The notes below the pieces were generated by a model that did no database searches, had not been told where the DNA came from, and saw only the letters and a list, made by a program, of their open reading frames with translations. Of a stretch of DNA of 64,000 nt, positions 37,780 to 63,454 are shown piece after piece. The position numbers were made by a program, and so were the translations under genes. Positions within the stretch are counted from its first letter, which is position 1, and every line of letters starts with the position of its first letter. The stretch is taken from NCBI GenBank assembly GCA_965227515.1, contig CBDDFZ010000001.1:3648001-3712000 (forward strand). Reading direction: 5' to 3'. Source of the stretch: Alphaproteobacteria bacterium. Its GTDB lineage: Bacteria; Pseudomonadota; Alphaproteobacteria; CALKHQ01.

Positions 37780-37814
37780 CGCGCTAGATCGGGATCAGCT
37801 TACGCTGAATCTGC

Positions 37815-37885: not shown

Positions 37886-37907
37886 TACCGACTGAAATGA
37901 TCATGCG

Positions 37908-39291: not shown

Positions 39292-39331
39292 GGTCTTATC
39301 GCCGCCGCCGCAACACTTCCTGAAATCTAAG
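39292..39331. promoter_or_regulatory. Candidate MelR binding site upstream of melA
   Basis: GGTCTT-N19-TTCCTGAAATCTAAG; core is 13/15 identical to 36772-36786. Confidence 0.55.
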
Positions 39332-40271
39332 CCGCACCATCCGGCATCTCATCGTGCTTCAGGTTCAGCCAGTCGAGGTGTTGCTGTGCCAACTCGACCT
39401 TGAAGGCGGCCATGCTGTCGTTCAGTTCGTCGATCGAGCGCGGGCCGATCAGCGCGTAGGACGGGAACGGCTGGCACAGCACATAGGCGGCGGCGACGTG
39501 CGCGGCCTCGACGCCGAAGCGCGATGCCAAGGCCGCGGCACGCCTGCGGCGCTCCCGGTTGTCGGCGCTGTCGAAACAGTCGTCCGGCCGGGTGCCCTCC
39601 GGCAGCGCGGCCATCGCGCCGGCATCCTGGTAGAAGTAGCCGCGGGCCTGCGAGGACCACGAAAAGTGGGTCATCTGGGTCTCGGTCAGGAACGCCAGCG
39701 TCGCGTCATCGGACGAGGAAATGCAGCCATCCCACACCGGGCGCTGCATGTGCGCCAGCGACAGGTTGTTGTTGAGGATGGCGAAGCCCTGCTTACCGCT
39801 GCGCGCGGCATAGTCGTTGGCGGCCTGCATCCGGCCGACGGTCCAGTTGGAGCCGCCGAACACCGTGACCAGCCCGGCGTCGACCTGAGCGTTCAGCACG
39901 TCGACAAACTCGTCGACCGGCACATCCGCATTGTCGCGATGCATGATGAAGATCGGCGCGCGCGGCAGTTGCAGCCGGTCGAGCGACTCATGCAGCTGCG
40001 CGACCAGTGCCTCCGGGTTGCAGTTCGGCGTGTGCGCGCCCTTGACGACGACCACGGTCCGGTCGGCAACGCCTGCATGCTTCAGCCAGGCCCCCAGCGC
40101 GCGCTCGCACGCCCCGTTCTGATAGATGTGCGCGGTGTCGAACGTGGTGCCGCCGCATGCCAGGAACGCATCCCAGATCGGCGCCCCCTCCTCCATCGTC
40201 AGCTTGTTGTCGCAGCCGAGGATCAGCTTCGACACATCGACATCCAGGCCAGCCGGCCTTCCGTATTGCAT
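39327..40271 (-). CDS. Aldo/keto reductase
   Basis: FDTAHIY, VVKG, SLDRLQ, MHRD and GGSNW motifs; ATG at 40271 after GGAG. Confidence 0.9.
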   Translation of the reverse strand: MQYGRPAGLDVDVSKLILGCDNKLTMEEGAPIWDAFLACGGTTFDTAHIYQNGACERALGAWLKHAGVADRTVVVVKGAHTPNCNPEALVAQLHESLDRLQLPRAPIFIMHRDNADVPVDEFVDVLNAQVDAGLVTVFGGSNWTVGRMQAANDYAARSGKQGFAILNNNLSLAHMQRPVWDGCISSSDDATLAFLTETQMTHFSWSSQARGYFYQDAGAMAALPEGTRPDDCFDSADNRERRRRAAALASRFGVEAAHVAAAYVLCQPFPSYALIGPRSIDELNDSMAAFKVELAQQHLDWLNLKHDEMPDGAA

Positions 40272-40389
40272 GGCGTCTCCAATGAGGAACAAGCGCGGGC
40301 GATGACCCGCCAGCGACCGCTACGACTGCGCTGGCGGGGCGGGCAATGTCAATGGCAATGGGTCAACCAAGGCTCAGACAAAAACGCGA

Positions 40390-41523
40390 TCAGAGTGCCG
40401 CTCCGGCGCGGCGCGCGCCCTCGCCCAACGTGGCCAGCTTGGCATAGGCGATCTCGGGGTCGATGGCGCCGAAGCCGGCAAAGGTGCCGAAACCGCAATC
40501 GGTGCCGGCAATCACGCGCTCGGGCCCGACGATGTCGACGAACCGCGAGATACGCTCGGCGACCAGGCTCGGGTGCTCGACGAAATTGGTCGTGGTGTCG
40601 ATGACACCGGGCACCAGCACCGTGTCCGCCGGAATGTCGGCGGCCCGGTCCGCGATCACCCGCCATTCGTGCCCGTGGCGCGGGTTGGCGGTCTCGAACA
40701 GCAGATACTGCGCGCGCACGCTCATCAGTACGTCGAGCACGCGCTCCAGGCCGATATCGCAAACGTGGGGACCTTCGTAATTGCCCCAGCAGATATGCAC
40801 CCGCACCCGGTCGCGCGGCACGTTGCGCAACGCTTGGTTCAATGCCGCCACGTTGGTGCGCGCCTCTGCCACGAAGGCGTCGTCGGACAGGTCCTGGAAC
40901 ATCATGTGCCGGGAGAGCGCCAGGTCCGGGCAGTCGAGCTGCAGGTCGAGCCCGGCGGCGGCGATGGCTTCGTACTCGGCGGCCATGGCCTCGGCCAGCG
41001 CTTCCAGATACGCCTGCCGGCTGGGGTAGTGCTGGTTGGGCAGGAACAGCGAAATGACGCCGGGGGACGCGGCGTTCATGAAGCCCCGTTCCACGCCATT
41101 CGCCGCCATGGCGGCTTTCAGGCGCGCGATGTCGGCCTCCAGCTCCCCGGTGTCCTTCGAGGTGACCGGGCCGGTGCACTGTGGGCGCGCGTATTTCGGC
41201 GTGGCGCCGCTGGCGGCCAGGCGCTTCAGGAACGAGGGGAACTGCTGCAGGTCGGCCGGCGGGCTGCGCGGCGTGTCGCCGGAAAAGCCCGTGTAGCGGT
41301 CCTTCACATAGGTGGCGTAGGAGATTTTCGACATCTCGCCGTCGGACACGATGTCGATGCCGGCATCGCGCTGCCGTCCCACCGCTTCAGTGACCGCTTC
41401 GTCCAGTGCGGCATCGAAGGCGGCCTGGTCGACGGCCTCGCCATTCTCGCGCGCGAAAATCTGGTCGACGACCGCTTGGGGGCGCGGCAGCGAGCCGACA
41501 TGCGTGGTCAGGATTTTCGGCAT
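40390..41523 (-). CDS. Cobalamin-independent methionine synthase II-like (single-barrel MetE/epoxyalkane:CoM transferase family) Zn enzyme
   Basis: THVGSLPRP, SDGE, QLDCP and the Zn-ligand motifs HICWGNY, FE and DCGF. Confidence 0.88.
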   Translation of the reverse strand: MPKILTTHVGSLPRPQAVVDQIFARENGEAVDQAAFDAALDEAVTEAVGRQRDAGIDIVSDGEMSKISYATYVKDRYTGFSGDTPRSPPADLQQFPSFLKRLAASGATPKYARPQCTGPVTSKDTGELEADIARLKAAMAANGVERGFMNAASPGVISLFLPNQHYPSRQAYLEALAEAMAAEYEAIAAAGLDLQLDCPDLALSRHMMFQDLSDDAFVAEARTNVAALNQALRNVPRDRVRVHICWGNYEGPHVCDIGLERVLDVLMSVRAQYLLFETANPRHGHEWRVIADRAADIPADTVLVPGVIDTTTNFVEHPSLVAERISRFVDIVGPERVIAGTDCGFGTFAGFGAIDPEIAYAKLATLGEGARRAGAAL

Positions 41524-41564
41524 GGTTCCATCATTCTTTGCTCTGATCTCTCATACCCAACCTC

Positions 41565-41740
41565 GTCACCCTCGCGCTTGTCGCGAGGGTCCATTGGCGT
41601 GGCAGGCGCCATGTTGCGCATCGCATGCTCGAACTCTGACCCGCATCGAACATGCCAGCCTTCCCCTGTCGCTATTTCCTCATTGGAGGCGAAAGGGCCT
41701 CGGCGCTGAAATGGGTCCTCGCCACGAGGGCGAGGACGAC
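41565..41740. repeat. REPIN-like doublet, GTCGCCCTCGCC family
   Basis: 30-bp arms GTCACCCTCGCGCTTGTCGCGAGGGTCCAT and ATGGGTCCTCGCCACGAGGGCGAGGACGAC. Confidence 0.85.
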
Positions 41741-41765
41741 AATCGTAGGAACTGTTTCATCGCGA

Positions 41766-42746
41766 TCACTCCCGTGTCGGGCCGGCGTCGTCGCCGGTCT
41801 TGCGCACGCGGAACAAGGCGGTCTCCCCGTTCATGGTCGGCGCAAGGCTTCGCTCGACACCGGCGGGCAGTGAGCACACGTCGCCCGGCGCCAGCGTGGC
41901 GGCGGCGCCGTTGGTGGCGACACGCCAGTGCCCGCGATGCACCATCAAGACCTCGTGCCGGTCGGGCGTGTAGGGCGCGCCCTCGCCGTCTTGCCCGCTT
42001 TGCAGGAACGCGACCTCGAAGCCGGTGCGGTCACGGATCATCGTGGAGTTGCCGGTGCCGATGACGGTCGCTGGCACGTCCGCCGACAATGCCTTCATGT
42101 CCCAGTAGCGGCGCACGAAACGGGGCACGACATCGGCGGCGGGCGTTTCCGGGAATTCGGCCAACTCCGCGTCGGTCAACAGCGGCATCGGGGCCACGCC
42201 GTCCGGCAGCCGTTCGCCCTTGGCGGTGTCATAGAGCCGTCCGGTCTCCGCCAGCACCAGGCCATGCTCCCGCGCCGCCTCGATGACGTGGGGCGCCCAC
42301 ACAACCCCGCCACCGGCGTCGTCGCCGCCCAGGATCGACATGATCATCCCGTAGTCGGTGCCGATGTTCTCGAACCCGCGGAAGATGCCCGTGGGAATAT
42401 CGAAGATGTCGCCTTCTTCCAGCACCACCTCGCCAGCGGCGCCGTGCAGGCCCCAGAAGAAGCGCCAGCGCCCATGCAGAACGAAGAACACCTCGGCGGT
42501 GCGGTGGGAGTGCATGGAATTCTTGCAGCCCGGCGGTTGGCCGGCGGCGCCGATGTTGAAGCCCGGCGTGTCGTGCAGGTGCACGTGCTGGTCGGTGCTC
42601 TCCGAAACGCCGGCGCCGATGATGGTGAAGTTCTCCTTGCGGTCGGAACCAGGCGTGTGCGCGTCGATGAAGGCGGTGCGGCACGGCTTCAGGTCGCCAT
42701 AGCGCACGATGCGGGATTCAAGCTCGGACGGCGTCATGGCGGTCAT
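41766..42746 (-). CDS. Cupin-domain protein (probable bicupin)
   Basis: HSHRTAEVFFVLHG..GDIFDIP.G cupin motifs; a second degenerate cupin (EVLMVHRG..L.PGD..LPAG) at the C-terminus. Confidence 0.8.
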   Translation of the reverse strand: MTAMTPSELESRIVRYGDLKPCRTAFIDAHTPGSDRKENFTIIGAGVSESTDQHVHLHDTPGFNIGAAGQPPGCKNSMHSHRTAEVFFVLHGRWRFFWGLHGAAGEVVLEEGDIFDIPTGIFRGFENIGTDYGMIMSILGGDDAGGGVVWAPHVIEAAREHGLVLAETGRLYDTAKGERLPDGVAPMPLLTDAELAEFPETPAADVVPRFVRRYWDMKALSADVPATVIGTGNSTMIRDRTGFEVAFLQSGQDGEGAPYTPDRHEVLMVHRGHWRVATNGAAATLAPGDVCSLPAGVERSLAPTMNGETALFRVRKTGDDAGPTRE

Positions 42747-43711
42747 GCACCCCGGTGCAACAGGATCTGCTTCCAGATCGCCGTTTCGTCATAGAGCACC
42801 CATTCGCGCCGCAAGCCCCATGGGCCGAATTCGGCATGGCTGAAGCCCATGAGATGGACCGGCGCGCCAGAGGGCGGACCGAACGGGCCCCAGCCATCGT
42901 GCCGCCCGTCCAGCGACCAGCGCAGGGCCGCGCGCGGCGGCATCTTCGGGTCGTCGCGTCCGATCCGGTGGTGGACAGCGAAGGTCGCGGCGGGAAAGGC
43001 GGATCGCAGGCCCAGCCAGAAGGCGTCCGCCGCCGCCCAGCCATGGCCCGATACGCCACCCGGGTGCTCAAGATGGCAGGCGCGGTCGTAGGTCGAGGGA
43101 ATGGCAGCGAAGTCGGCGTTCATGACGCGCCGCAGCAGGTCGGCATACTCCTCCCCGGCGGCATGATCGTTGCCCTTGCCGGTGTAAATGAGCGGCGCGT
43201 CCCGGTCCGGCGTGAAGGGCCGGCTTGCATGCTCCGGGCCGCCCTCGGCGGCGATGCGGTCGGCAGCGTACTGCTGGGGCGCGATGCCCAACTGCCGCAC
43301 GATCGCGCCCTGATCGCGCACCAGCCACTCGTCATAGACCTGGTTGTTGCGGCAGGCGCAGTCGGCGATGGCGCGGTAGCGCAGCGTCTTGCCCGTCGCC
43401 GGGCCGTATGTGCCGCTGGCCAGGTGCGTGGCGGTGCACATCAGCCGGTGGGAAGACAGAAAGTCATCCTCGGTGCCCGACCAGATGACGTCCTCGCCGA
43501 ACAACTGACGATCCGGCAGTTCAGCCAATGTTGCGGTGGTGGCCGCGATGACCGCCTGGTTGCCGGTGACCACGCCGGCCGGCGACCGCACCGCGATGTC
43601 GTCGGTGTAGTAGTGATTGAGGGTATCGACGCCCCTGTCTTCCCAGATCTCCTTGGTGATGCCGAGAATGTAGTCGGGCGGATCGGCGAACTTCGGGTCG
43701 AAGCCCTTCAC
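42743..43711 (-). CDS. SnoaL-like/ester cyclase (NTF2-fold) protein, two domains
   Basis: EIWEDR..L..YY..D, ATH..G.YGPATGK, EWLVRD; second domain G.H.G.G.FG.PSG..EWVLYD. Confidence 0.78.
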   Translation of the reverse strand: MKGFDPKFADPPDYILGITKEIWEDRGVDTLNHYYTDDIAVRSPAGVVTGNQAVIAATTATLAELPDRQLFGEDVIWSGTEDDFLSSHRLMCTATHLASGTYGPATGKTLRYRAIADCACRNNQVYDEWLVRDQGAIVRQLGIAPQQYAADRIAAEGGPEHASRPFTPDRDAPLIYTGKGNDHAAGEEYADLLRRVMNADFAAIPSTYDRACHLEHPGGVSGHGWAAADAFWLGLRSAFPAATFAVHHRIGRDDPKMPPRAALRWSLDGRHDGWGPFGPPSGAPVHLMGFSHAEFGPWGLRREWVLYDETAIWKQILLHRGA

Positions 43712-44724
43712 GTGGCAGCCTCCGTGGGGATGCGCGCAGACGTGCGCACGATGAGCGGCGCGTCGATGATCGTGCGCTGGGGCTCACTGTCCCCGCGCTC
43801 GATCCGCGCCAGCAAGGTATCGACCACCGCGTCCACCATGTCGTCGGCGGATTGCCGGATCGTGGTCAGGCCATAGGTCGGCCAGGCGGCCTGGGGCACG
43901 TCGTCGTAGCCGACGATGGACACGTCTTCCGGCACCCTGAGCCCGAACTCGCCGCGCAGCACGTCCATGACGGCAATCGCCATGTGGTCGTTGGCGACGA
44001 ACACGGCGTCGGGACGGTCCGCGCGTTCGAACATGCGGCGTGCGGCGGCCTCCGCATCCGGAAAGCTGTAGTTGCCGACGTCGCGCGCGAAGAGGCTCAG
44101 GCCGTGCGCCTCCAGGCCGGCGAGGAACCCGGCTTCGCGGTCGCGCTGGGTCGCAGCACCTTCCCAACCGGCGATGTAGGCAATGCGCTTGTGCCCACCC
44201 GCGGCAAGGAATTCGGCCAGCCTTCGGCCACCCGCCAGATTGTCGCCGGTGACGGCGGAAAACCTGGGATCGTCCTGGGCGCGGTTGAACAGCACGACCG
44301 GCACCCCGGCATCGTCGCACCGCGCGGCCAGGTCGGACGACATGGACGCCGACGCCAGCACGATGCCATCGGCCTGGTAGTTCAGGATCTTGTCGAGCAG
44401 GTCGTCGACATTGGCCGCCGTCTGCGGCGCCATGAACATCAAGATGTGGTAGCCGCGCTGTTGCAGCGCGCGTGACAGCAGTTCCAGCGCGGTCGGGTAG
44501 AACAGATTGTCCAGGTAGGCGACGACCAGACCGATGATGCGGCTGCGCCCGGTGATCAGCGAGCGGGCAAGCGCATTCGGCCTGTAGCCAAGCTCCTGCG
44601 CCGCCTTCAGCACCTTGGCGCGCGTCTTGATGCTGACGCTGCCGCCGGGGGTGAAGGTGCGGCTGACCGCCGATTGGCTGACCCCGGCATGTCGCGCCAC
44701 GTCGGTGGAGGACGGCCTGCTCAT
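43708..44724 (-). CDS. LacI-family transcriptional regulator (HpsR-like by context)
   Basis: DVARHAGVSQSAVSR HTH, LGYRPNALARSL, ND.MA, VPEDVSIVGYDD and LTTIRQ motifs. Confidence 0.93.
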   Translation of the reverse strand: MSRPSSTDVARHAGVSQSAVSRTFTPGGSVSIKTRAKVLKAAQELGYRPNALARSLITGRSRIIGLVVAYLDNLFYPTALELLSRALQQRGYHILMFMAPQTAANVDDLLDKILNYQADGIVLASASMSSDLAARCDDAGVPVVLFNRAQDDPRFSAVTGDNLAGGRRLAEFLAAGGHKRIAYIAGWEGAATQRDREAGFLAGLEAHGLSLFARDVGNYSFPDAEAAARRMFERADRPDAVFVANDHMAIAVMDVLRGEFGLRVPEDVSIVGYDDVPQAAWPTYGLTTIRQSADDMVDAVVDTLLARIERGDSEPQRTIIDAPLIVRTSARIPTEAAT

Positions 44725-45272: not shown

Positions 45273-45286
45273 TAGCTCTATCCCCT

Positions 45287-46411: not shown

Positions 46412-46420
46412 CGCCGCCCC

Positions 46421-47449: not shown

Positions 47450-47517
47450 GTGCGGGGTCCCAGCGGAGTCCAGGCAAGGGCGGCGCGCAGCCCATCCGGC
47501 AGCGCGCCAGCCTCAAC

Positions 47518-48735
47518 CTATTGGATCAGCCCGCTCTCCTTGGCCAGGCTCAGATAGGCGGCCTCCACATCGGCCAGAGTCTGCTCGGCGCTCTCGTCAC
47601 CGAGCAGGAAGTCGGCGATGTTGTCGCCCAGCGCGGTGTGCATCAGGCCCATCTCCGTCGACGCCGGATAGGACGGTGCGCCAGCGATGGCGGAGTCGAT
47701 GGCGCCCTGCGCCACCGGGCTCGGCTCGAAGCCATCGATCAGCCACACGGCGACATCGTTGTTGGCCTGCACCATCTCGGTGTCCAGGCCCTCCATTGCG
47801 ACGCGGAACGCGGCCTCGGCCTCCTCGTCGGGGATGTTCTTGGCGATGACGATACCGTCCCACCACAGGGTGGTCGCCGGTGCACCGCCTTCGACGGCGG
47901 CCGGAGCGGCGGCCATCGTCACCAGGCCGACCACGCTGGACTCCGCCTCGTCGTCCATGGCGCCGGCGCGGCTCGCCCACAGATTGGCCATGGCGATGTC
48001 GCCCTGCTGGAACTGCTGCTGCACATAGGTTGAGTCGGAGACCAGGAACTCGGGGTCCATATAGGCGGTCAGCGCCTTCAGCATCTCCAGCGCCTGCACG
48101 CCCTGCTCGTTGTTGACCGACGGCGTCAGGTCGTCGTTGAAGAACGCGCCGCCGAAGCCGAGGTACATATTGATGAATTCCTCGCCCAGGTTCCAACCGG
48201 TCATGAACGTGCCGCCGATCGGGTAGTCCACCACCCCGGCCTCCTGGATCACCTCGGCCGCGGCCAGCATCTCGTCATAGGTTGTAGGCGGCGCCAGGCC
48301 CAGGTCGTCGAAAATATCGGATCGGTACATCAGGTGCTGGGCGTTCACCATCATCGCGATCGCCATGATGTCGCCGTCGATGGAGATGAGCTGGTTCGGG
48401 GTCAACTGGCCGCCATACGCCTCCACCAGGTCGTTCAGCGGGCGGATGGTGCCGTCGTTCAGCAGCGGCACCAGGGTGCCGTTGGCGACCCCGCCGACAT
48501 GATAGAGCGACGGATCGGCGGCGAAGCCTGTCGGTTGCTTGGTGCGAAACTCCTGGTCGAGCTCGGCATTGACGTTGCCGCACTCGGCCATCGCGCCGGT
48601 GACCGCTTGCCAGGCTTCGAACGCCGCCGACAGCATGCTGATCTCGACATCGTTCTCGAACGCGCATTCGGCGAACGCGCCGCCAGCCGGCGCAATCGCG
48701 CAGGCCGACGCCAAGGCGATGGTGCGAAGCTTCAT
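47518..48735 (-). CDS. Carbohydrate ABC substrate-binding protein
   Basis: Signal peptide ending AFA-E; LMYRSDIF..PPTTYDEM; ATG at 48735 after GGGAG. Confidence 0.88.
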   Translation of the reverse strand: MKLRTIALASACAIAPAGGAFAECAFENDVEISMLSAAFEAWQAVTGAMAECGNVNAELDQEFRTKQPTGFAADPSLYHVGGVANGTLVPLLNDGTIRPLNDLVEAYGGQLTPNQLISIDGDIMAIAMMVNAQHLMYRSDIFDDLGLAPPTTYDEMLAAAEVIQEAGVVDYPIGGTFMTGWNLGEEFINMYLGFGGAFFNDDLTPSVNNEQGVQALEMLKALTAYMDPEFLVSDSTYVQQQFQQGDIAMANLWASRAGAMDDEAESSVVGLVTMAAAPAAVEGGAPATTLWWDGIVIAKNIPDEEAEAAFRVAMEGLDTEMVQANNDVAVWLIDGFEPSPVAQGAIDSAIAGAPSYPASTEMGLMHTALGDNIADFLLGDESAEQTLADVEAAYLSLAKESGLIQ

Positions 48736-48774
48736 GTCAATCTCCCTGAGTTTCAATTAGGGGCTGCCTGAGGT

Positions 48775-49851
48775 TCAATTGGTTGGCGGGGCGGCGGCGG
48801 GCTCGATCCGCTGCCCGTTCTCGCGGTCGAACAAATGGCAATGGGCGACCGGGACGTGGAAGCCGACCGTGTCGCCGATTTCGGCGCGGTAGTCCTTGTC
48901 GGCCTTGACCGCGACCAGGGCGCCGCCCGCGCGCACCGTGACCATGGTCGAATCGCCAAGCAGTTCGATGGAGAAGATCGGCGCCGCCACCTCAGCGCCC
49001 TCGGGCGGGCCGACACGGGCGTCCTCCGCCCGGAAGCCGAGCGTCACCGGGCCGCGCTCGCCGGTGACCAAGCCACCGATCTCGACGTTGTCGCCGCGGA
49101 AGATGCCGTCGGTCACCTCGCCCTCCATCAGGTTCATCGCCGGCGAGCCGATGAACCCGGCCACGAACGTATTGGCGGGGTTGTTGTAGATCTCGGTCGG
49201 TGAGCCGACTTGCTGCACGACGCCGTGGTTCATCACCACCACGCGATCGGCCAGCGTCATCGCCTCGATCTGATCGTGGGTGACATAGATCGTCGTGACT
49301 TCCAGCTCGTGCTGCAGGTTCTTCAACTGCGCCCGGGTCGAGACGCGCAACTTGGCGTCCAGATTGGACAGCGGCTCGTCCATCAGGAACACCTGCGGCT
49401 GGCGCACGATGGCCCGCGCCAAGGCCACGCGCTGGCGCTGTCCGCCGGAGAGCGCGGCCGGCTTGCGGTCCAGCAACTCGGACAGCTCCACCATTTCCGC
49501 GGCCCTGCGCACCCGCTCGTCATGGGCGGCGGTCGGCACCTTGCGCACCTTCAGCGGGAAGCGAATGTTCTCGTAGACGGTCATGTTCGGATAAAGGCCG
49601 TAGCTCTGGAACACCATCGCCACGTCGCGGTCCTTGGGCTCCAGGTCGTTCACGACCCGGCCGCCGATCAGGATCTCGCCCTCGGTCGCGTCCTCCAGGC
49701 CGGCGACCATGCGCATGGTCGTGGTCTTGCCGCAGCCCGACGGGCCAAGCAGCACCAGGAACTCGTGGTCCTCCACCGTCAGGTCGAACTTGTCGACCCC
49801 GACGAAGCTGCCCCAGCGCTTGGAGACGTTTCGCAGTTGGATTTCCGCCAC
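48775..49851 (-). CDS. Sugar ABC ATP-binding protein
   Basis: GPSGCGKTT, LSGGQRQR, DEPLSNLD and FIGSPAMN motifs; GTG start after GAGAGG. Confidence 0.93.
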   Translation of the reverse strand: MAEIQLRNVSKRWGSFVGVDKFDLTVEDHEFLVLLGPSGCGKTTTMRMVAGLEDATEGEILIGGRVVNDLEPKDRDVAMVFQSYGLYPNMTVYENIRFPLKVRKVPTAAHDERVRRAAEMVELSELLDRKPAALSGGQRQRVALARAIVRQPQVFLMDEPLSNLDAKLRVSTRAQLKNLQHELEVTTIYVTHDQIEAMTLADRVVVMNHGVVQQVGSPTEIYNNPANTFVAGFIGSPAMNLMEGEVTDGIFRGDNVEIGGLVTGERGPVTLGFRAEDARVGPPEGAEVAAPIFSIELLGDSTMVTVRAGGALVAVKADKDYRAEIGDTVGFHVPVAHCHLFDRENGQRIEPAAAPPTN

Positions 49852-49864
49852 CGGCAGACCTCTC

Positions 49865-49880
49865 TTGCATACGAATGCAA
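49865..49880. promoter_or_regulatory. LacI-type operator, copy 1
   Basis: TTGCATACGAATGCAA, a near-palindrome with central CG in a divergent intergenic region; exact reverse complement of 59698-59713. Confidence 0.8.
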
Positions 49881-49934
49881 AGAGTGTAGTCATGGGTTCG
49901 AAGAACGACAACCAATTTGTGGTGGCGCCCTGTA

Positions 49935-50915: not shown

Positions 50916-50928
50916 TCTGTAGACGCGC

Positions 50929-51900
50929 CTACCGGCCCATTGACGCGTCGAACTGGGCGTAGAACTGCTGCACATCCCGCCCGAAGGACTGCCGGAACGC
51001 CGACCGCCAATTCATCCCGCTGCCCAGCATGCGCCAGAACGTCGGCAGGCTGCCGATCCCGCTCTGCATCACCAGGTCCTGGACGGCGACCCGCGCCACC
51101 GGCCATTTCAGCTCCGGGGTCCAGTCGCGCTGCGCCTCCATGCTGGACAGCACCGGCGCGCCGTTGGTCGACCAGGCGCGCGCCACCAGCCGATCCTCAT
51201 CGAACCTGTGCCACGCGCCCGGGTCCATGGTCTCCACCAGCATCGAGTAGGCGATGTACTCGCTGGCACCCTCGATCAGCCAGATCGGCCCGAACAGTTC
51301 GGTCGTATTGGTGGGATCGGTCAGCAGGAACGAGTCGCGGTCTCCCGCAAAATCGTGCTGCATGATGTGCGCCATCTCGTGCGCCAGCAGATGGTTGCGT
51401 TGCAACCTGCGTTGCGCCAGTTCGGCGCTGACGCCTTCGCGCCCCGTGTTGACGACGATGAAGTTATCGCCGGCCTGCCCCGTCGAGTTGGCTATCCGGG
51501 CGACGAAATCGACCGGCAGAGTGTCATCGACGTGCGCAACGACCTGATCGCGGAGCCAGTAAGGATCGGCGGACGCGAATATCGCCAGCGGCCGGTCGCG
51601 CTGATATCCGAAATGACTATGCAGATAGGCGGCCGCCATTGCCGCCCCCTCCGCAATGTAACGGCGGTCCGCGGCCGAAACGTTGTCGTCGAAACCGAAC
51701 GACATCGTGCCCTGCTGGGCGCCCGCAACAATGCCCAGGGAAGCGGCGCCGGCGGCCGGCGAGACATCGGCAACGACATCGCTGGCCTGGGTCGAGGCGA
51801 CCTGAAAAGGCTGCCTGCTCTTCGGCTGGCAAGCACCCAGAAGTGCTACGATGACAACGGCAGAAACAATAAATACATTTGTATGCAACTTAAATATCAT
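50929..51900 (-). CDS. Hypothetical lipoprotein with HEXXH zinc-peptidase-like motif
   Basis: Lipobox-like LLGAC; LAHEMAH and downstream WLIEGASEY (gluzincin-like pattern). Confidence 0.6.
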   Translation of the reverse strand: MIFKLHTNVFIVSAVVIVALLGACQPKSRQPFQVASTQASDVVADVSPAAGAASLGIVAGAQQGTMSFGFDDNVSAADRRYIAEGAAMAAAYLHSHFGYQRDRPLAIFASADPYWLRDQVVAHVDDTLPVDFVARIANSTGQAGDNFIVVNTGREGVSAELAQRRLQRNHLLAHEMAHIMQHDFAGDRDSFLLTDPTNTTELFGPIWLIEGASEYIAYSMLVETMDPGAWHRFDEDRLVARAWSTNGAPVLSSMEAQRDWTPELKWPVARVAVQDLVMQSGIGSLPTFWRMLGSGMNWRSAFRQSFGRDVQQFYAQFDASMGR

Positions 51901-51949
51901 CGTAGCCCCCCAAGATTAACAATAGGGCGCAATATCGAGGGCCGCAATA

Positions 51950-52717
51950 TTACCCTGCCGTCCAACCGCCGTCGATCAGCAGCGATGTGCCGGTCACCAT
52001 CGCGGACGCATCTGACGCCAGGTAGACGATGGCGCCCATGATGTCCTCGATGTTGCCGATGCGGCCCAATTTGATCTTGCTCTCGATCCAGCGCATCCGC
52101 TCGGGGTTGGAGAATGTCTGTTCGGCCAGGGGCGTGCGGATGAAGGTCGGGCCGATGGTGTTGACCCGGATCCCATGCGGTCCCCACTCGATCGCCATCG
52201 CCTTGGTGAACCCCTCGATGGCGAATTTGGAGGCGCAATAGACCGCGCGGTCCAGCCCGCCGACATGACCCATCTGGGACGAAACGGTGACGATGGAGCC
52301 CGGCTTGCCGGCGTCGATCAACCCCTTGGCAACCGCCTGGGCGAGGAAGTAGGCGCCGCGCAGGTTGACCGACATCACCGCGTCATAGTCGTCCGGCGTG
52401 GTCTCCACCGCCGGAGTATGGCGGGCAATGCCGGCCGAATTGACCAGCACGTCGAAGGGACCGTGGCGCGCAATCGCCTCCGCCGCTGCCTCGACATTGG
52501 CGATGTCGAGCGGAAGGGCCTCGGCAGACCAGCCCTCGCCGGTTATGGCAGCGGTCGCTTCCTCCAGGCGTTCGAGCCCGCGCGCGGCAAGCACGACGTG
52601 GGCACCGGCCTCGGCGAGAGCAACGGCGCAGCCGAAGCCGATGCCGGACGATCCGCCGGAAACCAGCGCGCGCCGGCCGTCCAGCCGCATGGATGGCGTG
52701 CGCGGAATGCCCGTCAT
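51950..52717 (-). CDS. hpsO: SDR oxidoreductase, HpsO-like (DHPS-associated dehydrogenase)
   Basis: PRTPS.RLDGRRALVSGGSSGIG, SSQMGHVGG, YCASK and PTFIRT motifs; in the same operon as hpsN. The SDR call is firm; the hpsO assignment rests on context and recalled similarity. Confidence 0.7.
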   Translation of the reverse strand: MTGIPRTPSMRLDGRRALVSGGSSGIGFGCAVALAEAGAHVVLAARGLERLEEATAAITGEGWSAEALPLDIANVEAAAEAIARHGPFDVLVNSAGIARHTPAVETTPDDYDAVMSVNLRGAYFLAQAVAKGLIDAGKPGSIVTVSSQMGHVGGLDRAVYCASKFAIEGFTKAMAIEWGPHGIRVNTIGPTFIRTPLAEQTFSNPERMRWIESKIKLGRIGNIEDIMGAIVYLASDASAMVTGTSLLIDGGWTAG

Positions 52718-53739: not shown

Positions 53740-53742
53740 GTG

Positions 53743-55068: not shown

Positions 55069-55091
55069 GCTCGGTTTCCTTCTAATTCCAA

Positions 55092-55195
55092 CGTCATCGC
55101 GAGGCTGCGTCAGCAGCCGCGGCGATCCAGGCGTTCGTCGCGGCTGTGCCGATATCGCTCTGGATTGCCGCGTCGCTCCGCTCCTCGCAATGACG
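55092..55195. repeat. Palindromic element, CGTCATTGCGAG..CTCGCAATGACG family
   Basis: Inverted arms; the right arm is complementary to the half element at 24211-24254. Confidence 0.8.
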
Positions 55196-55218
55196 ATGAG
55201 TGGAAAACACACTCACCG

Positions 55219-56274
55219 TCACCCCCTGATCCGCTGCTCGGTGGCGGCATCGAAAAGGTAGACATGGGCCCCTGCCAGCGACAGTGACACCGTGTCGCCG
55301 ATGGCGCGGCGCATGCGGCGTTCGCCCTTGGCAACGATGCGCTGACTGCCGATCTCGATCGTGACCAGCACGCTCTCGCCGGTCGGCTCGAAGGCGTAGA
55401 CCGACGCGTCGAAGTCGCCGGCGCCGGCCTCGCCGACGCTGATGTCCTCCGGCCTGACTCCGAGCACGACCCCTTCGCGGTCGCCCGGCACGTTGCAAGG
55501 CACGCTCAACGGGCCGGCGGCAAACCGACCGCCCTCAAGCCGTCCCTCGATCAGGTTCATCGCCGGCGAGCCGATGAAACCGGCGACGAACAGATTGGCC
55601 GGATCGTCGTAGATCTCATCCGGCGGCCCAAGCTGCTGGATGACGCCGTGGTTCATCACCGCCACCCGGTCGGCCAGGGTCATCGCCTCGATCTGGTCGT
55701 GGGTGACGTAGACGGTGGTGATCGCCAGCTCGTGCTGCAGGTGCTTGATCTCGGCGCGCATGGAAACCCTGAGCTTGGCATCCAGGTTCGACAGCGGCTC
55801 GTCCATCAGGAACACCTGCGGCGTGCGCACGATGGCGCGGGCCAGGGCCACGCGCTGGCGCTGGCCGCCGGACAGCTCGCGCGGCTTGCGGTGCAGCAGG
55901 TCGGCGAGCTGTACCTTCTCGGCCGCTTGCTGGACGCGCGGCCCGATCTCCGGCTTCGGCGTGCCGCGCACATCGAGCGGGTACCCGATGTTGCGCGCCA
56001 CCGTCATGTGCGGATAGAGGCCGTAGTTCTGGAACACCATGGCGATGTCACGGTCTTTCGGCAGCTCGTCGTTGACCATGCGGTCGCCGATCCAGACCTC
56101 GCCCTCGCTGGGGTCCTCCAGACCGGCGATCATCCGCATGGTGGTGGTCTTGCCGCAGCCCGACGGGCCCAGCAGCACCAGGAACTCCTGGTCGGCGATG
56201 TCGAGCGACTGGTTGTCGACGGCGACGAAGTCGCCCCAGCGCTTGCTCACATTTTCCAGCCTGACGCCAGCCAT
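55219..56274 (-). CDS. Sugar ABC ATP-binding protein
   Basis: GPSGCGKTT, LSGGQRQR and DEPLSNLD motifs; real start MAGVRL at 56274. Confidence 0.93.
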   Translation of the reverse strand: MAGVRLENVSKRWGDFVAVDNQSLDIADQEFLVLLGPSGCGKTTTMRMIAGLEDPSEGEVWIGDRMVNDELPKDRDIAMVFQNYGLYPHMTVARNIGYPLDVRGTPKPEIGPRVQQAAEKVQLADLLHRKPRELSGGQRQRVALARAIVRTPQVFLMDEPLSNLDAKLRVSMRAEIKHLQHELAITTVYVTHDQIEAMTLADRVAVMNHGVIQQLGPPDEIYDDPANLFVAGFIGSPAMNLIEGRLEGGRFAAGPLSVPCNVPGDREGVVLGVRPEDISVGEAGAGDFDASVYAFEPTGESVLVTIEIGSQRIVAKGERRMRRAIGDTVSLSLAGAHVYLFDAATEQRIRG

Positions 56275-57101
56275 CAGCGTACCGCCCCCATGGTCATGCC
56301 CTGCACGAAATGACGTTGGATGATCAGCGCCAGCACGAACATCGGCACCATGATGATGATGCCGGCGGCCGCCAGCAGGTTCCACTGGTCGCCTTCCTCC
56401 GCCTTGAACAGGGCGAGGCCCACCGGCAGGGTCACCGCGTCCTTGGTGGTCAGGATCAGCGCGAACAGGAAGTCGTTCCAGGCGATGATGAAGCAGAAGA
56501 TGGCACCGGTGATGATGCCGGGGGCGGCCATCGGCATTACGATGCGCACGATCACCTGCATGCGTGTCGAGCCGTCGACGAGGGCCGCTTCCTCGGTGTC
56601 CTTCGGTATCCCGTCGATGAACCCTTTGATCATCCATATCGCGAAGGGCATCACGATCGACAGGTTCACCAGCACCAGGCCGTACCAGGTGTCGGTGATC
56701 TTCAGGTCGCGAAACATCAGGAAGAACGGCAGCACGATGACCACGGCGGGCACGAACTGGGTGGCCAGGATCATCACGAACATCACCCGCTCGCCACGCA
56801 TGCGAAAGCGCGAGAACGAATAGGCGGCACAGGTCGCGATCGGAATCGCGATGGCCACGGTGACCGTGGCGACGAGCGTGGAGTTCCACAGCTTGTCGCC
56901 CAGATCGTAGGGCGCATCGAACACGGTGGCGTAGTTGTCGAGCGTCGGCTCGAAGAAGAGCTTGAGCTGGTAGACGTCGACGTGGGTCTTGAACGAGGCG
57001 AGCGCGATCCAGGCGATCGGCACCATCATGAACAAGACGACCAGCACGATCAGCGCGACCTTGCCCGCCTCGACCAGCCGGCGTTTCTGGCGGTTGGTCA
57101 C
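56274..57101 (-). CDS. Carbohydrate ABC permease
   Basis: EEAALVDG, WNDFLFA and QRHFVQGMT.G motifs; GTG start at 57101. Confidence 0.9.
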   Translation of the reverse strand: MTNRQKRRLVEAGKVALIVLVVLFMMVPIAWIALASFKTHVDVYQLKLFFEPTLDNYATVFDAPYDLGDKLWNSTLVATVTVAIAIPIATCAAYSFSRFRMRGERVMFVMILATQFVPAVVIVLPFFLMFRDLKITDTWYGLVLVNLSIVMPFAIWMIKGFIDGIPKDTEEAALVDGSTRMQVIVRIVMPMAAPGIITGAIFCFIIAWNDFLFALILTTKDAVTLPVGLALFKAEEGDQWNLLAAAGIIIMVPMFVLALIIQRHFVQGMTMGAVR

Positions 57102-58033
57102 CGCGCGCCCCGGAACACGAAACGGGTGTACAGGAATGTGAGACCGATCATCGGGATCACCATGATCCAGGCGACGGCGGCCGCGTAACCCATGTCGTAG
57201 TACTTGAAGCCCTGGAAATACGCGTAGTGGGCCAGGGTCTGGGTCGCGGTGCCGGGGCCGCCATTGGTCAGCATGTAGACCTGATCGAACGTCTTCAGCG
57301 AGAAGATGGTTTTCAGGATGACGACGACCGCCAGCACCGGGGCGAGTTGCGGCAGGGTGACGTCCCGAAACACCCGCCAGGTGGAGGCACCGTCGACCTG
57401 GGCCGCCTCGACTGTTTCGCGCGGCACCGCGGCGAGCCCGCCGATCAGCACCAGTGTCAGGAACGGGATCCAGCCCCACACATCGGCCAGCACCACAACG
57501 ACGAACGCCAATGTCGGATCCGACAGCCAGGAAATCTCGGCCAGCGGCGGGATCAGCACGCCGAAGAAGGCGTCGAACAGGCCGAACTCAGGATTGAACA
57601 TGAACCGGAACGACACGCCCACCAGCGCCGGGCTCATGGCGAACGGCAGGATCAACAGCGTGCGCACGGTGAAGCGCAGCCGGCCGCCCGGCGCCAGCAG
57701 CATCGCGATGCCCAGCGCAAGCACAGTGGTGATGGCAACGGTCAGCACGGTGTAGACCGCGGTGACGAGCACGGAGTTCCAGAACGCCGGCTCGCAGAAC
57801 AACGCCCATTCGTAGTTGTCGAACCAGACGAACGGGCCCGGCTCGTTGGACCGCCCCAGGTCCCACCGGCGGAACGACAGCACCAGGCTATCGATCAGTG
57901 GATAGATGGCGGTGGCGAACACCACCACCACCGCCGGCAGCACCAGCAGATACTTCAGGTGGCGGTCGCGCAGCCCCCCGCGCCGCCAGGGGACATCGCG
58001 GGTGGAATTGGCGGCCTGGGCGGAGGTGGTCAT
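57098..58033 (-). CDS. Carbohydrate ABC permease
   Basis: EAAQVDGAS, FDQV..LTNGGPG and MGYAAA motifs. Confidence 0.92.
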   Translation of the reverse strand: MTTSAQAANSTRDVPWRRGGLRDRHLKYLLVLPAVVVVFATAIYPLIDSLVLSFRRWDLGRSNEPGPFVWFDNYEWALFCEPAFWNSVLVTAVYTVLTVAITTVLALGIAMLLAPGGRLRFTVRTLLILPFAMSPALVGVSFRFMFNPEFGLFDAFFGVLIPPLAEISWLSDPTLAFVVVVLADVWGWIPFLTLVLIGGLAAVPRETVEAAQVDGASTWRVFRDVTLPQLAPVLAVVVILKTIFSLKTFDQVYMLTNGGPGTATQTLAHYAYFQGFKYYDMGYAAAVAWIMVIPMIGLTFLYTRFVFRGAR

Positions 58034-58068
58034 GGCCTAACCAACGCAGAGCCTGTCAATACATGCTC

Positions 58069-58240
58069 GTCGCCCTCGCCCTTGTGGCGAGGGCCCATTC
58101 CTGTCGAGGCTCCGCCATCTCGTGCGAAGCCTCGACTTCGGGGCGCATGCGGTCTCATCGCTGGACCAACCACAATGCCCTGTTCGGCAAGAAGAGCAAC
58201 CGCCACATAGATGGGCCCTCGCCACAAGGGCGAGGGCGAC
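58069..58240. repeat. REPIN-like doublet, GTCGCCCTCGCC family, with perfect 30-bp inverted arms
   Basis: GTCGCCCTCGCCCTTGTGGCGAGGGCCCAT (58069-58098) and its exact reverse complement (58211-58240). Confidence 0.9.
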
Positions 58241-58262
58241 AATGCTTCTTCTTTCTTCGACC

Positions 58263-59603
58263 CTACTCGTCGTAGTACCCGGCACGGCCCAGCACGCGCT
58301 CGACCTGCTCGGCCGCCTCCAGCATCAGCTCGCGGGTGTCGCCACCGGCCGCTGCCTCGGCAATCGCGGCCGACAGGATGTCGCCGACCTCCGTCCATTC
58401 CGGGATTTGCGGCATGATGTCGGAGTTCTGCAGCGACGCCCAGGCGGCCTCCTGGATATTGCTGTTGGCCGCATTGACCTCCGCGTCGGTTAGGTTCGCG
58501 ATGTGGGTGACCACGTTGTTGATAATGGTCTCACCGGCAACCTCGCGCTCGGTCGCGTTCGCCTTCTCCAGGTCGGGGTTCGACAGCCACTTCAGGAACT
58601 CCCAAGCCGCATCCTGATTCTCGGAGTACTGCGAGATCGAGAACGGCATCGAAATGGCGTATGTGGCGGTGGTGCCCTGGTACGACGGCATGCCGACAAA
58701 GCCGACCTGATCGGCGGTCAGCACAGATTGTTCCGGATTGGTCATTGGCGAATAGGCCCACCACCAGACCGGGATCATGGCGGAGTTGCCCTGCTGGAAC
58801 GACTGGCGCGCGTCCTGCTCCACGAAAGACAGCGACGCCGGGTTGGTGACGCCTTCGGTGTGAAGCTTGATGTACGCTTCCGTCGCGGCCAATGCCTCCT
58901 CCGAGGTCCAGGCCGGCTTCATGTCCTCATCGAACACATCGCCGCCGACAGCCCACAGGAAGTTCAGCCAGATGAACAGGTTCTGCCGGTTGCCGTCGTT
59001 GTTGTAGTAGAGCGCGAGCGGCTCGATATCGAGGCCGGCCTCGCGGATCAGCCGCGCCGCCTCGATCACGTTGTCCCACGTGGTTGGCGGCTCGGCGCCC
59101 ACCTGCTCGAAGATGTCGGTGCGGTAGAACATGAGCTGGGCATGGGCGCGCAACGGGAAGCCCAGGGTCTCGCCCTCGAACTGCGCAGAGCGCGCGAACG
59201 CCGGCGGATAGCGGTCCATCGAGATGCCGTCGCGGGCCATCCAGTCGTCGATGCGGACCAGCCAGTGCGCGTTCGGCGGCCCCCAGCTATCGAGATAGTT
59301 GACCAGATCGAACGAGCCGTCGGCCGCCACGCCCACCGCCGACACTTTTTCCTGCAACGCGGTGAAGGGAATGAAGGTCCATTCGGTCTCGATGCCGGTC
59401 AGTTCGGTGAATTCGCCGTCTCGCAGCATCAGGCCGTCGAATTGCGGCGTGACCACCGACAGGATCTGGAGGGTCGTGCCCTCGAAGGGCTTGCCGGGCA
59501 GCAGGCCATACGGCAGTTCGTCCTGCGCCATCGCAGGGAAAGCCAAGGCACCTGCCAACAGGAATGCACCGAGCCCGGCGATCGGGCGCGCGTTCGAGTT
59601 CAT
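58263..59603 (-). CDS. Carbohydrate ABC substrate-binding protein
   Basis: Signal peptide ending AMA-Q; MFYRTDIF..PPTTWD; AAWEFLKWL; ATG at 59603 after GGAGGGAG. Confidence 0.9.
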   Translation of the reverse strand: MNSNARPIAGLGAFLLAGALAFPAMAQDELPYGLLPGKPFEGTTLQILSVVTPQFDGLMLRDGEFTELTGIETEWTFIPFTALQEKVSAVGVAADGSFDLVNYLDSWGPPNAHWLVRIDDWMARDGISMDRYPPAFARSAQFEGETLGFPLRAHAQLMFYRTDIFEQVGAEPPTTWDNVIEAARLIREAGLDIEPLALYYNNDGNRQNLFIWLNFLWAVGGDVFDEDMKPAWTSEEALAATEAYIKLHTEGVTNPASLSFVEQDARQSFQQGNSAMIPVWWWAYSPMTNPEQSVLTADQVGFVGMPSYQGTTATYAISMPFSISQYSENQDAAWEFLKWLSNPDLEKANATEREVAGETIINNVVTHIANLTDAEVNAANSNIQEAAWASLQNSDIMPQIPEWTEVGDILSAAIAEAAAGGDTRELMLEAAEQVERVLGRAGYYDE

Positions 59604-59697
59604 CGTTTGCTCCCTCCAACTTGAGCTTTTTCCTCGGCCCGGATCGTGCGTCCGCCGGCACCGATGGCTCAATTCTGACAGCCTAGTATGCGTGATT

Positions 59698-59713
59698 TTG
59701 CATTCGTATGCAA
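59698..59713. promoter_or_regulatory. LacI-type operator, copy 2
   Basis: TTGCATTCGTATGCAA, about 95 nt upstream of the SBP-hpsN operon. Confidence 0.8.
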
Positions 59714-60932: not shown

Positions 60933-60963
60933 GCGCGGAAATCAAAAAGGGAGGAACCGTCGC

Positions 60964-62409: not shown

Positions 62410-62418
62410 TCAGAACCA

Positions 62419-63444: not shown

Positions 63445-63454
63445 AGGTTCGGAT

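Follow-up and report, generated by a model that had tools for sequence, protein, structure and literature searches.

The hps gene clusters of Ruegeria pomeroyi and Cupriavidus pinatubonensis (hpsKLM-hpsN-hpsO-hpsP) combine, in the accessible text of PMC11382572 and PMC11131964, a LacI-type regulator and a binding-protein-dependent importer with HpsN, a four-electron dehydrogenase of the HisD family that carries a GDK motif, and an adjacent short-chain dehydrogenase/reductase (SDR). In the HpsN/CuyC/CuyB/CuyA pathway for D-cysteinolate of Bilophila and Desulfovibrio, an HpsN-like enzyme takes a second substrate, L-cysteinolate, which it prefers, in another gene context (accessible text of PMC12814064). 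Here, we describe a cluster whose layout resembles that of hps clusters in a 64,000-nt stretch of DNA from an Alphaproteobacteria bacterium (GenBank assembly GCA_965227515.1, contig CBDDFZ010000001.1, positions 3,648,001 to 3,712,000; hereafter the window). Two minus-strand operons and one divergent gene encode a HisD-family dehydrogenase, its SDR partner, a LacI-family repressor, two importers, four SnoaL/NTF2 proteins, a bicupin and a MetE-like enzyme. The original prediction, made from the sequence alone, had read this locus as an hpsN/hpsO regulon extended for the catabolism of an organosulfonate. We favor a different reading, to which we give a probability of roughly 60%: the locus would be one LacI-repressed regulon for the uptake and catabolism of a polar compound, ending in an HpsO/HpsN-like module that acts on another substrate.

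Beyond the shared regulator, importer, dehydrogenase and SDR, the window cluster differs from the hps clusters in gene content. Its importers are ATP-binding cassette (ABC) systems of the CUT1 family, whereas those of the hps clusters are DctPQM-type transporters of the tripartite ATP-independent periplasmic (TRAP) class; it has no HpsP-type zinc-dependent alcohol dehydrogenase (Zn-ADH), and it adds seven NTF2 domains, the bicupin and the MetE-like enzyme. The enzyme of the D-cysteinolate pathway, according to the accessible text of PMC12814064, has retained the residues with which HpsN binds its substrate, and its gene lies with cuyABC; the window cluster contains none of these cuy genes. With LacI-controlled CUT1 operons for sugar or polyol use, such as the smo cluster of Agrobacterium, the locus shares transporter class and regulator type, and SmoF (7nbz) is a distant relative of both solute-binding proteins (SBPs); however, their similarity to SmoF is no closer than to maltose, sorbitol and chitobiose binding proteins, and the window has no sulfoquinovosidase, monooxygenase or other smo enzyme. 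The enzyme families are known, while their combination and the pathway are not. As the original prediction supposed, no paper describing the cluster was found in the literature searched, supplementary files lying outside that search. The homarine hom operon was considered and set aside as unrelated to the cluster, going by the accessible portion of its description (PMC13236597).

Relatives were collected by scanning species-representative genomes with a back-translated pattern, which gave at least 590 matches, at least 587 of them confirmed to encode a relative of the dehydrogenase. The best 80 of these at least 587 places, taken with 10-kb flanks, are the related loci referred to below, and 52 of them have full flanks.

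Among solved structures, the best relatives of the window dehydrogenase are HpsN of R. pomeroyi (8wwe, E 2.3e-112) and of C. pinatubonensis (8v35, 2.3e-111), with about 50% identity; in the same PDB search, HisD structures start at E 1.4e-77. Aligned with HpsN-type and HisD sequences, the enzyme keeps the hallmarks of the HisD fold (1k75, 4g07), namely, the QAEH zinc ligands, the SEH(V) catalytic Glu-His and GH. It also passes the TIGR00069 domain model, which does not tell the paralogues apart. The Asp-Lys pair of HpsN (GDK; Asp352-Lys353) is kept as well, in contrast to the GDY of HisD, and identity to a roseobacter HisD is about 42%. Database labels are divided: close homologues are named sulfopropanediol 3-dehydrogenase by JGI and one UniRef entry, and histidinol dehydrogenase by NCBI.

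The accessible text of the CpHpsN structure paper describes a motif that separates HpsN (G-R-Y-A/S-H) from HisD (G-S-A-P-L), in which His126 of HpsN is a zinc ligand in the free enzyme and, in the product complex, hydrogen-bonds the sulfonate together with Lys353 (PMC11382572). The accessible text of a roseobacter HpsN study highlights the same Arg-Tyr-Ser triple (PMC11131964). In HMMER alignments the window dehydrogenase has G-K-F-P-M at this position, which replaces the sulfonate-binding His with Met, and both GKFPM and GDK are present in all 80 orthologues fetched. For a phylogeny, 62 of 150 listed representatives at 50% identity were kept, restricted to 395 to 480 residues, and one row was then dropped. 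The resulting FastTree of 61 full-length representatives and the window protein, midpoint-rooted and with support values not inspected, places a GK[YF]P[LM] group that includes the window protein as sister to a GR[YF]xH group.

Genomes that carry the cluster hold the two enzyme types side by side. A PF00815 search in five such genomes found three paralogues in each: a HisD type (GLASY...GDY), an HpsN type (GRY[SA]H...GDK) that is 45 to 49% identical to the window protein, and a GKFPM type that is 79 to 85% identical to it. In G001, the one relative whose neighborhood was read, the HpsN-type gene lies in a cluster of the order LacI / DctP-DctQ-DctM - HisD family - SDR - Zn-ADH, about 40 kb from the NTF2-rich cluster. 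These comparisons show a paralogue rather than an orthologue of HpsN, with a predicted change in the substrate pocket, so its substrate is probably not the algal sulfonate DHPS (2,3-dihydroxypropane-1-sulfonate) itself. The hpsN label of the original prediction is therefore withdrawn.

Other members of the family were seen along the way. The window genome itself encodes two PF00815 proteins in total and no canonical HisD or HpsN type by this search; the second gene, C2:530515-531744, has GKGAF, GNF and NAVLPT where canonical HisD has GLASY, GDY and NHVLPT, and it passes the cut-off of the hisD model (439 bits versus 243.8). In G003, a divergent GKGAF-type HisD gene occurs in addition to a canonical HisD gene. 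A further subtype with GRYPL or GRFPL and SDK, 45 to 47% identical to the window protein, is encoded at L073:18466-19707, L079:16574-17815 and L031:8506-9750; it adjoins an amidase gene near the cluster in L073 and L079, with about 90 nt separating the two genes in L031.

The SDR encoded with the dehydrogenase is not specifically HpsO-like in sequence, and the hpsO name given to it earlier finds no support in the ranking of its solved relatives. Gluconate 5-dehydrogenase (177 bits), L-xylulose reductase and KduD head that list, with HpsO (8wwf) in 12th place at 146 bits. All of these enzymes, HpsO included, presumably act next to a terminal CH2OH group.

Conservation of the neighborhood was measured by tblastn with the window proteins in the 52 related loci with full flanks (Table 1). 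Across Proteobacteria from sea and soil, the HisD paralogue and SDR are strongly co-conserved with tandem SnoaL proteins, the bicupin and the MetE-like enzyme (38 to 47 of the 52 loci), which answers a proposal of the original prediction to look for such synteny. In the usual relative, a single operon of the order ATPase-SBP-permease-permease-SnoaL B1-HisD-like-SnoaL A-SDR-LacI-SnoaL B2-bicupin-MetE-like faces a divergent tandem SnoaL gene, which occupies the same position as in the window. The operon end may carry an alpha/beta-hydrolase gene (24/80 loci) and an RraA-like gene (21/80), with an Amidohydro_2 gene also present in some relatives; many loci stop before this point. Carriers among the best 80 include Ruegeria, Roseibium, Planktomarina, a Puniceispirillales metagenome-assembled genome (MAG), a SAR92-clade MAG and Granulosicoccaceae MAGs, as well as Rhizobium, Devosia and Microvirga. 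Gene calls based on GC content at third codon positions (GC3) were unsuited to the lower-GC loci L048, L024 and L069, for which tblastn coordinates were used. Both sugar-type importers that had been counted into the cluster are indeed CUT1 systems, and importer B belongs to the conserved set; importer A and the aldo-keto reductase (AKR) are outside it.

A putative operator ties the two operons together. The 16-bp palindrome TTGCATACGAATGCAA lies at 49865-49880, in the promoter region that operon B shares with the divergent plus-strand SnoaL gene and 14 nt upstream of the chosen start of the importer B ATPase gene, and an exact copy on the opposite strand lies at 59698-59713, upstream of SBP_A in operon A. 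Allowing up to three mismatches, the window holds 5 strand-matches versus 0.28 expected, a number reached in none of 100 shuffles. With up to two mismatches, the whole 5,518,080-base genome holds only these two sites, and a reversed control pattern gave none. One further match in the window (51873-51888, three mismatches) falls inside the first codons of a lipoprotein gene and is probably due to chance. Similar sites recur in relatives: the pattern TTGCAT-N4-ATGCAA, with up to two substitutions, is found in 64 of the 80 related loci, with 141 sites in all, whereas 20 mononucleotide shuffles averaged 29.5 and reached at most 40. In a typical relative, two sites precede the ATPase gene by about 40 and 95 nt; several loci have one just upstream of the HisD-like gene. 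Since these two promoters are the only places in the genome with the operator, both operons are assigned, together with the divergent gene, to one LacI regulon in which operator binding is putative. The original prediction of a shared 16-bp operator and a single co-regulated set is borne out to this extent.

The dehydrogenase and SDR genes also occur away from the rest of the cluster. None of the four accessory markers (SnoaL A, SnoaL B2, bicupin and MetE-like) is present in nine related loci that span 15 kb or more; eight shorter loci were uninformative on this point. The pair is then found with a LacI gene and a TAXI-TRAP transporter (L030, L063), with a LIV-type ABC transporter, a 3-hydroxyacyl-CoA-dehydrogenase-like (3HCDH) gene and a BKACE gene (L047; partly L080 and L030), with a ribose-type ABC system (L053) or with a molybdenum hydroxylase (L019). 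Elsewhere the HisD-like gene has no adjacent SDR gene and stands beside luciferase-like and acyl-CoA-dehydrogenase-like genes (L007) or beside pntAB and acs on plasmid pRL8 of Rhizobium johnstonii 3841 (L088, 43991-45301). Accessory-free loci are interspersed among full-cluster loci in the HisD-like tree. Further, bicupin and MetE-like queries found no match in four of five pair-only genomes, and the fifth gave weak partial matches (35% identity over residues 3 to 176 and 34% over residues 2 to 91). Because the pair recurs without the accessory genes, is scattered in the tree and is mostly found in genomes without a bicupin or MetE-like match, we infer that it is a self-sufficient end module, with the accessory enzymes acting upstream or in a side branch. 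This fits the earlier suggestion that the extra enzymes feed the step catalyzed by the HisD paralogue.

The orthologue on pRL8, pRL80041, is 82% identical to the window protein and has a divergent LacI-like gene. The accessible text of PMC3333776 reports the CoxMSL-like genes of this plasmid as specific to the pea rhizosphere, and the main text of that transcriptome paper does not mention pRL80041. The protein is listed as detected in a bacteroid proteome table (accessible part of PMC7105596). No assigned function for pRL80041 was found in the accessible literature, supplements being outside the search.

Transporter genes at the head of the cluster vary as well. An MFS_2 gene of the glycoside-pentoside-hexuronide type precedes the HisD-like gene in L012, and an MFS_1 gene does so in L004. 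L074 has a second CUT1 set, with a GH63-like gene of the mannosylglycerate hydrolase type directly upstream of the HisD-like gene. The two importers of the window are each a full CUT1 set, with an SBP of the SBP_bac_1 family, two BPD_transp_1 permeases and a MalK-type ATPase with TOBE/OB domains. They differ from each other: identity is about 30% between the SBPs, across part of the sequence, and 62% between the ATPases, and both importer B permeases (342 and 374 residues) are unusually long. Searches of solved structures with SBP_A and SBP_B returned distant relatives only, among them SmoF and a glycerol-3-phosphate binding protein.

Four SnoaL proteins had been predicted, and all four carry a SnoaL domain (PF07366/PF12680); three of them are in fact tandem two-domain proteins of 322 to 341 residues, giving seven SnoaL/NTF2 domains in total. 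The divergent copy is 37% identical to SnoaL A. A Foldseek search with the AlphaFold2 (AF2) model of SnoaL A (mean predicted local distance difference test [pLDDT], 79.7) matched the whole protein to the tandem NTF2 polyether epoxide hydrolases Lsd19 and MonBI-MonBII with template modeling (TM) scores of 0.32 to 0.40, and the individual domains to single-domain SnoaL-like proteins with TM scores of 0.7 to 0.86. Sequence searches of solved structures with SnoaL A gave distant, nondiagnostic matches only, and the ESM Atlas returned only clusters named "ester cyclase". SnoaL/AknH cyclases, Lsd19 and MonBI-MonBII (1sjw, 3rga, 9kw6) thus share the NTF2/SnoaL fold with the window proteins, whose tandem architecture appears closest to Lsd19/MonB in the modeled structure, but identity is 13 to 22%, and the context here is catabolic. 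No polyketide synthase genes were found in the locus or among the Pfam-scanned conserved neighbor families of the 80 related loci, and the score for the SnoaL polyketide cyclase model NF033407, 43.6 bits, is below its cut-off of 200.

The protein first listed as a cupin is a 326-residue bicupin. It has one metal site, H79-x-H81-x3-E85, which is invariant in 27 sequences. Its best PDB profile match is a weak one to acireductone dioxygenase (E 2.5e-4), a sequence search of solved structures found no match, and Foldseek with the AF2 model (pLDDT, 83.1) returned many generic bicupins at TM scores of about 0.5. The MetE-like protein falls far below all NCBIfam methionine synthase cut-offs (best, NF003317, 94 bits versus 406), and its matches among solved structures are distant and nondiagnostic. 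All 45 orthologues keep H243-x-C245, E277 and C343; we take this H-x-C...E...C pattern to be a putative zinc/thiol site of the kind found in MetE-type alkyl transferases.

Taken as one catabolic regulon, these parts can be arranged as follows. A sugar- or polyol-like polar compound, or several related ones, would enter through two alternative CUT1 importers. Once inside, it may be dismantled or trimmed by the SnoaL/NTF2 proteins with their seven domains, the bicupin with its metal site and the MetE-like zinc/thiol enzyme, possibly by isomerization or hydrolysis, ring or C-C cleavage, and transfer of a methyl or alkyl group onto a thiol. By analogy with HpsO, the SDR would act on a terminal alpha-hydroxyketone or 1,2-diol, at its penultimate carbon, and by analogy with HpsN, the HisD-like Zn/NAD enzyme would oxidize the terminal CH2OH to a carboxylate in a four-electron reaction, giving a 2-hydroxy acid. 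Several points weigh against this reading. The order of the steps is inferred, and the accessory enzymes could belong to a side branch rather than act upstream. The GDK motif retains Lys353, a residue that contributes to sulfonate binding in HpsN, and E. coli HisD and HpsN are reported to be cross-active in the accessible text of PMC11131964; the enzyme may therefore still act on DHPS or another sulfonate. The synteny counts depend on tblastn thresholds that we chose, and the absence of accessory genes from pair-only genomes rests on single-protein queries in five genomes of unstated completeness.

An organosulfonate substrate, as first predicted, is unlikely though it has several points in its favor. 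On this account, a larger sulfonated compound is broken down by the accessory enzymes to DHPS, sulfolactaldehyde or a similar sulfonate such as cysteinolate, which the HisD paralogue oxidizes as HpsN does. The closest solved relatives are indeed HpsN (E of about 1e-112 versus 1e-77 for HisD), the Asp-Lys pair that coordinates zinc and helps bind the sulfonate is kept, some databases apply the sulfopropanediol 3-dehydrogenase label, and the arrangement of LacI, transporter, HisD-like and SDR genes resembles that of the hps clusters. An HpsN homologue also oxidizes L-cysteinolate (accessible text of PMC12814064). In L007, luciferase-like monooxygenase and acyl-CoA-dehydrogenase-like genes stand beside the HisD-like gene. 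Both of these families occur in sulfur-scavenging clusters. Set against this, the sulfonate-binding His is Met in 80/80 orthologues, a canonical HpsN-type gene is retained in 5/5 relatives (with a full TRAP-hpsN-SDR-ADH cluster in G001), and the SDR is not specifically HpsO-like. No recognizable desulfonating or sulfite-handling enzyme was found among the Pfam-scanned conserved neighbor families of the 80 related loci. In the window genome, no Xsc scores above its cut-off (best, 274.6 bits versus 676.4), and there is no two-subunit SuyAB-type gene; the sole gene of the UxaA/SuyB family (GD_AH) encodes a fused, 572-residue GarD-like protein, and CuyA was not searched. The sulfonate identity originally proposed thus finds no support in these searches.

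More speculatively, the cluster could be an undescribed route with which abundant bacteria of sea and soil dismantle a methylated, cyclic or conjugated metabolite of algae, fungi or plants, the most concrete candidate being a mycosporine/gadusol core. NTF2-fold enzymes would cleave bonds, the MetE-like zinc enzyme would move a methyl or alkyl group onto a thiol, the bicupin would open the ring, and the HpsN-like enzyme and SDR would finish the degradation. We regard this as improbable; if true, NTF2-fold enzymes would perform bond-cleaving chemistry that this fold is not known to carry out in catabolism.

In its specific form, ring opening of mycosporine-type sunscreens or of the gadusol/4-deoxygadusol core, the proposal is a long shot. 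Here, NTF2 enzymes and a hydrolase would remove amino acid substituents, the MetE-like enzyme would move the enol methyl ether to a thiol, the HisD-like enzyme would oxidize the hydroxymethyl group on the tertiary carbinol, and the bicupin would cleave the resulting reductone ring; in relatives, an RraA-like aldolase would split a product resembling 4-carboxy-4-hydroxy-2-oxoadipate (CHA). Each conserved family can be given a role on paper in this way, and the weak acireductone dioxygenase match of the bicupin (E 2.5e-4), the sugar-type transporters (CUT1, or MFS_2 in L012) and the occurrence of the cluster in both marine and soil bacteria are compatible with it. Also in its favor, none of the papers listed in a literature search describes mycosporine catabolic genes. 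The RraA-like and alpha/beta-hydrolase genes at the operon end of relatives, with Amidohydro_2 in some, recall the end steps of protocatechuate 4,5-cleavage and gallate degradation, which use an RraA-like aldolase for CHA or 4-hydroxy-4-methyl-2-oxoglutarate (3noj). However, the RraA-like protein of relatives matches the solved CHA aldolase weakly (3noj, E 8.5e-4), and close orthologues of the hydrolase and RraA-like genes are absent from the window cluster, the best proteins elsewhere in the genome being 37% and 41 to 44% identical, respectively. The scheme also leaves unexplained the stand-alone HisD-like/SDR pair, with no bicupin or MetE-like gene found and with unrelated transporters.

A glyceryl conjugate, X-CH2-CH(OH)-CH2OH, such as glucosylglycerol, (iso)floridoside or a deacylated glyco- or betaine-lipid head group, which the HisD-like enzyme would convert to a glycerate conjugate, is very unlikely. 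CUT1 importers do handle glyceryl compounds, the distant relatives of the SBPs include SmoF (sulfoquinovosyl glycerol) and the glycerol-3-phosphate binder, and the substrate of HpsN itself is a glyceryl-type sulfonate; a GH63-like gene directly precedes the HisD-like gene in L074, and a GH4 alpha-galactosidase gene adjoins the cluster in the window. These glycosidases are not conserved (GH4 in 0/52 loci, GH63-like in one locus), and seven NTF2 domains, the bicupin and the MetE-like enzyme would be left without a role. Finally, that the window gene serves histidine biosynthesis among unrelated sugar-transport operons, as the count of only two PF00815 genes and the GNF and NAVLPT motifs of the C2 gene might suggest, is scarcely credible, given that it lies in a LacI-controlled operon syntenic with catabolic genes, that orthologues 79 to 86% identical to it coexist with canonical HisD in 5/5 relatives, which thus keep a separate HisD, and that the C2 gene clearly exceeds the hisD cut-off.

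Compared with the single operon of relatives, the cluster in this genome is rearranged. In relatives the HisD-like/SnoaL A/SDR block lies between SnoaL B1 and LacI, whereas here it follows importer A and has an operator copy of its own. The order SBP_A-permease-permease-ATPase_A-HisD-like recurs in only one other related locus, L048, from a Rhodospirillales MAG, with 69 to 82% identity; its SBP, 69% identical, is the sole orthologue of SBP_A among the 80 related loci. In L048, the HisD-like gene is followed by SDR-LacI-SnoaL B2-bicupin-MetE-like. As the order at the front of this locus is the same as here, the window genome joins the front of an A-type cluster to a B-type cluster without the HisD-like block. 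The ancestral single operon may have been split, with the block moved behind importer A and provided with its own operator.

Dispersed repeats lie at some of the gene junctions. Elements of about 170 bp that resemble repetitive extragenic palindromes (REP) or miniature inverted-repeat transposable elements (MITE) share a 21-mer core with about 249 near-copies (up to three mismatches), 189 on C1 and 60 on C2. The regulon's operons contain two copies, one in the gap between the SBP_A and permease genes and one in the 243-nt gap between the bicupin and MetE-like genes (Table 1); further copies in the window lie at 24380-24553 (and 24793). The 150-nt gap between the ATPase A and HisD-like genes (55069-55218) contains a palindromic stretch, cgtcattgcgagg ... 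cctcgcgatgacg, which resembles a further dispersed repeat, here where the relocated block joins the importer A genes.

The gene map combines GC3 frame analysis with Pfam and NCBIfam scans, which confirmed the predicted two-operon layout with its divergent gene, domain content and gene order; some start codons, including those of importer A permease 2 and ATPase B, were picked by us. A gene missed earlier encodes a lipoprotein between the SDR and the divergent SnoaL gene. Its GC3 of 0.80 is below that of most neighbors, it has no Pfam or NCBIfam match, and it is absent from all 80 related loci; it is an inserted gene outside the conserved cluster. The AKR gene is present as predicted, but its membership is doubtful because it is conserved in 0/52 loci and follows a terminator-like hairpin (40310-40295). 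Such hairpins are no more common in the window than in shuffles, and terminator and promoter consensus scans of the window were at chance level. On the AKR side, the cluster adjoins the GH4 alpha-galactosidase gene and an AraC-type regulator gene; on the other flank, a SorC/DeoR-type regulator gene is followed by a third CUT1 ABC system. None of these flanking genes is conserved with the cluster.

Table 1. Features of the window cluster and its flanks, with conservation given as minimum identity and number of full-flank related loci
Feature	Coordinates	Strand	Evidence or remark	Conservation
SBP_A, CUT1 solute-binding protein of importer A	58263-~59672	-	SBP_bac_1, 1.5e-33; start codon uncertain, must be below the operator	Importer A, at least 45%: 1/52
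REP-like inverted-repeat element	58069-58240	.	41-nt arms, 88% complementary; operon A	
Importer A permease 1	57098-58033	-	BPD_transp_1	As for importer A
Importer A permease 2	56274-57101	-	BPD_transp_1	As for importer A
Importer A MalK-type ATPase	55219-56274	-	ABC_tran, OB_MalK, TOBE_2	As for importer A
HisD-family four-electron dehydrogenase, GKFPM clade, 441 aa	53743-55068	-	PF00815, 3.5e-133	
SnoaL A, tandem SnoaL/NTF2, 341 aa	52714-53739	-	SnoaL + SnoaL_2, two stretches	At least 55%: 41/52
SDR, partner of the HisD-like enzyme	51950-52717	-	adh_short_C2, 6e-61	At least 55%: 47/52
Lipoprotein with HEMAH motif, 323 aa	50929-51900	-	Signal/lipobox and HExxH read from the sequence	At least 45%: 0/52
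Divergent tandem SnoaL/NTF2, 326 aa	49935-50915	+	SnoaL, 1e-24	At least 30%: 42/52; may include cross-hits to SnoaL A
Importer B MalK-type ATPase	48775-49851	-	Pfam	At least 65%: 40/52
SBP_B, CUT1 solute-binding protein of importer B	47518-48756	-	SBP_bac_1 + SBP_bac_8	Importer B, 40-65% by component: 38-40/52
Importer B permease 1, 342 aa	46421-47449	-	BPD_transp_1	As for importer B
Importer B permease 2, 374 aa	45287-46411	-	BPD_transp_1	As for importer B
SnoaL B1, single-domain SnoaL/NTF2, 183 aa	44721-45272	-	SnoaL, 2e-23	At least 45%: 27/52
LacI-family repressor	43708-44724	-	LacI HTH + Peripla_BP_3	At least 50%: 46/52
SnoaL B2, tandem SnoaL/NTF2, 322 aa	42743-43711	-	SnoaL + SnoaL_2	At least 50%: 44/52
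Bicupin, 326 aa	41766-42746	-	Cupin_2	At least 55%: 43/52
REP-like element	41565-41740	.	Between bicupin and MetE-like genes	
MetE-like (Meth_synt_2)	40390-41523	-	PF01717, 6.6e-12	At least 60%: 38/52
AKR, doubtful member	39327-40292	-	PF00248	At least 45%: 0/52
GH4 alpha-galactosidase	37908-39221	-	NF011657, 652.7 bits versus cut-off 486	At least 45%: 0/52
AraC-type regulator	within 36859-39221	+		At least 45%: 0/52
SorC/DeoR-type regulator	within 59967-64000		Sugar-bind, 1.2e-72	At least 45%: 0/52
Third CUT1 system, SBP	60964-62409			
Third CUT1 system, permease	62524-63444			

The cluster is not rare, with at least 587 places in species-representative genomes encoding a close relative of the dehydrogenase, and a widespread pathway of this kind would be a blind spot in our understanding of how algal and plant carbon is consumed. 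The split operon, duplicated operator and two alternative importers of the window genome illustrate how such a pathway can be rewired. That some annotation sources name the dehydrogenase sulfopropanediol 3-dehydrogenase matters, as meta-omic studies count hpsN from such labels. The accessible text of one preprint (10.1101/2024.12.10.627767) reports hpsN in Planktomarina and SAR92-clade MAGs. G-K-F-P-M versus G-R-Y-A/S-H offers a simple discriminator of the paralogue from true HpsN, and its use could alter estimates of DHPS cycling.

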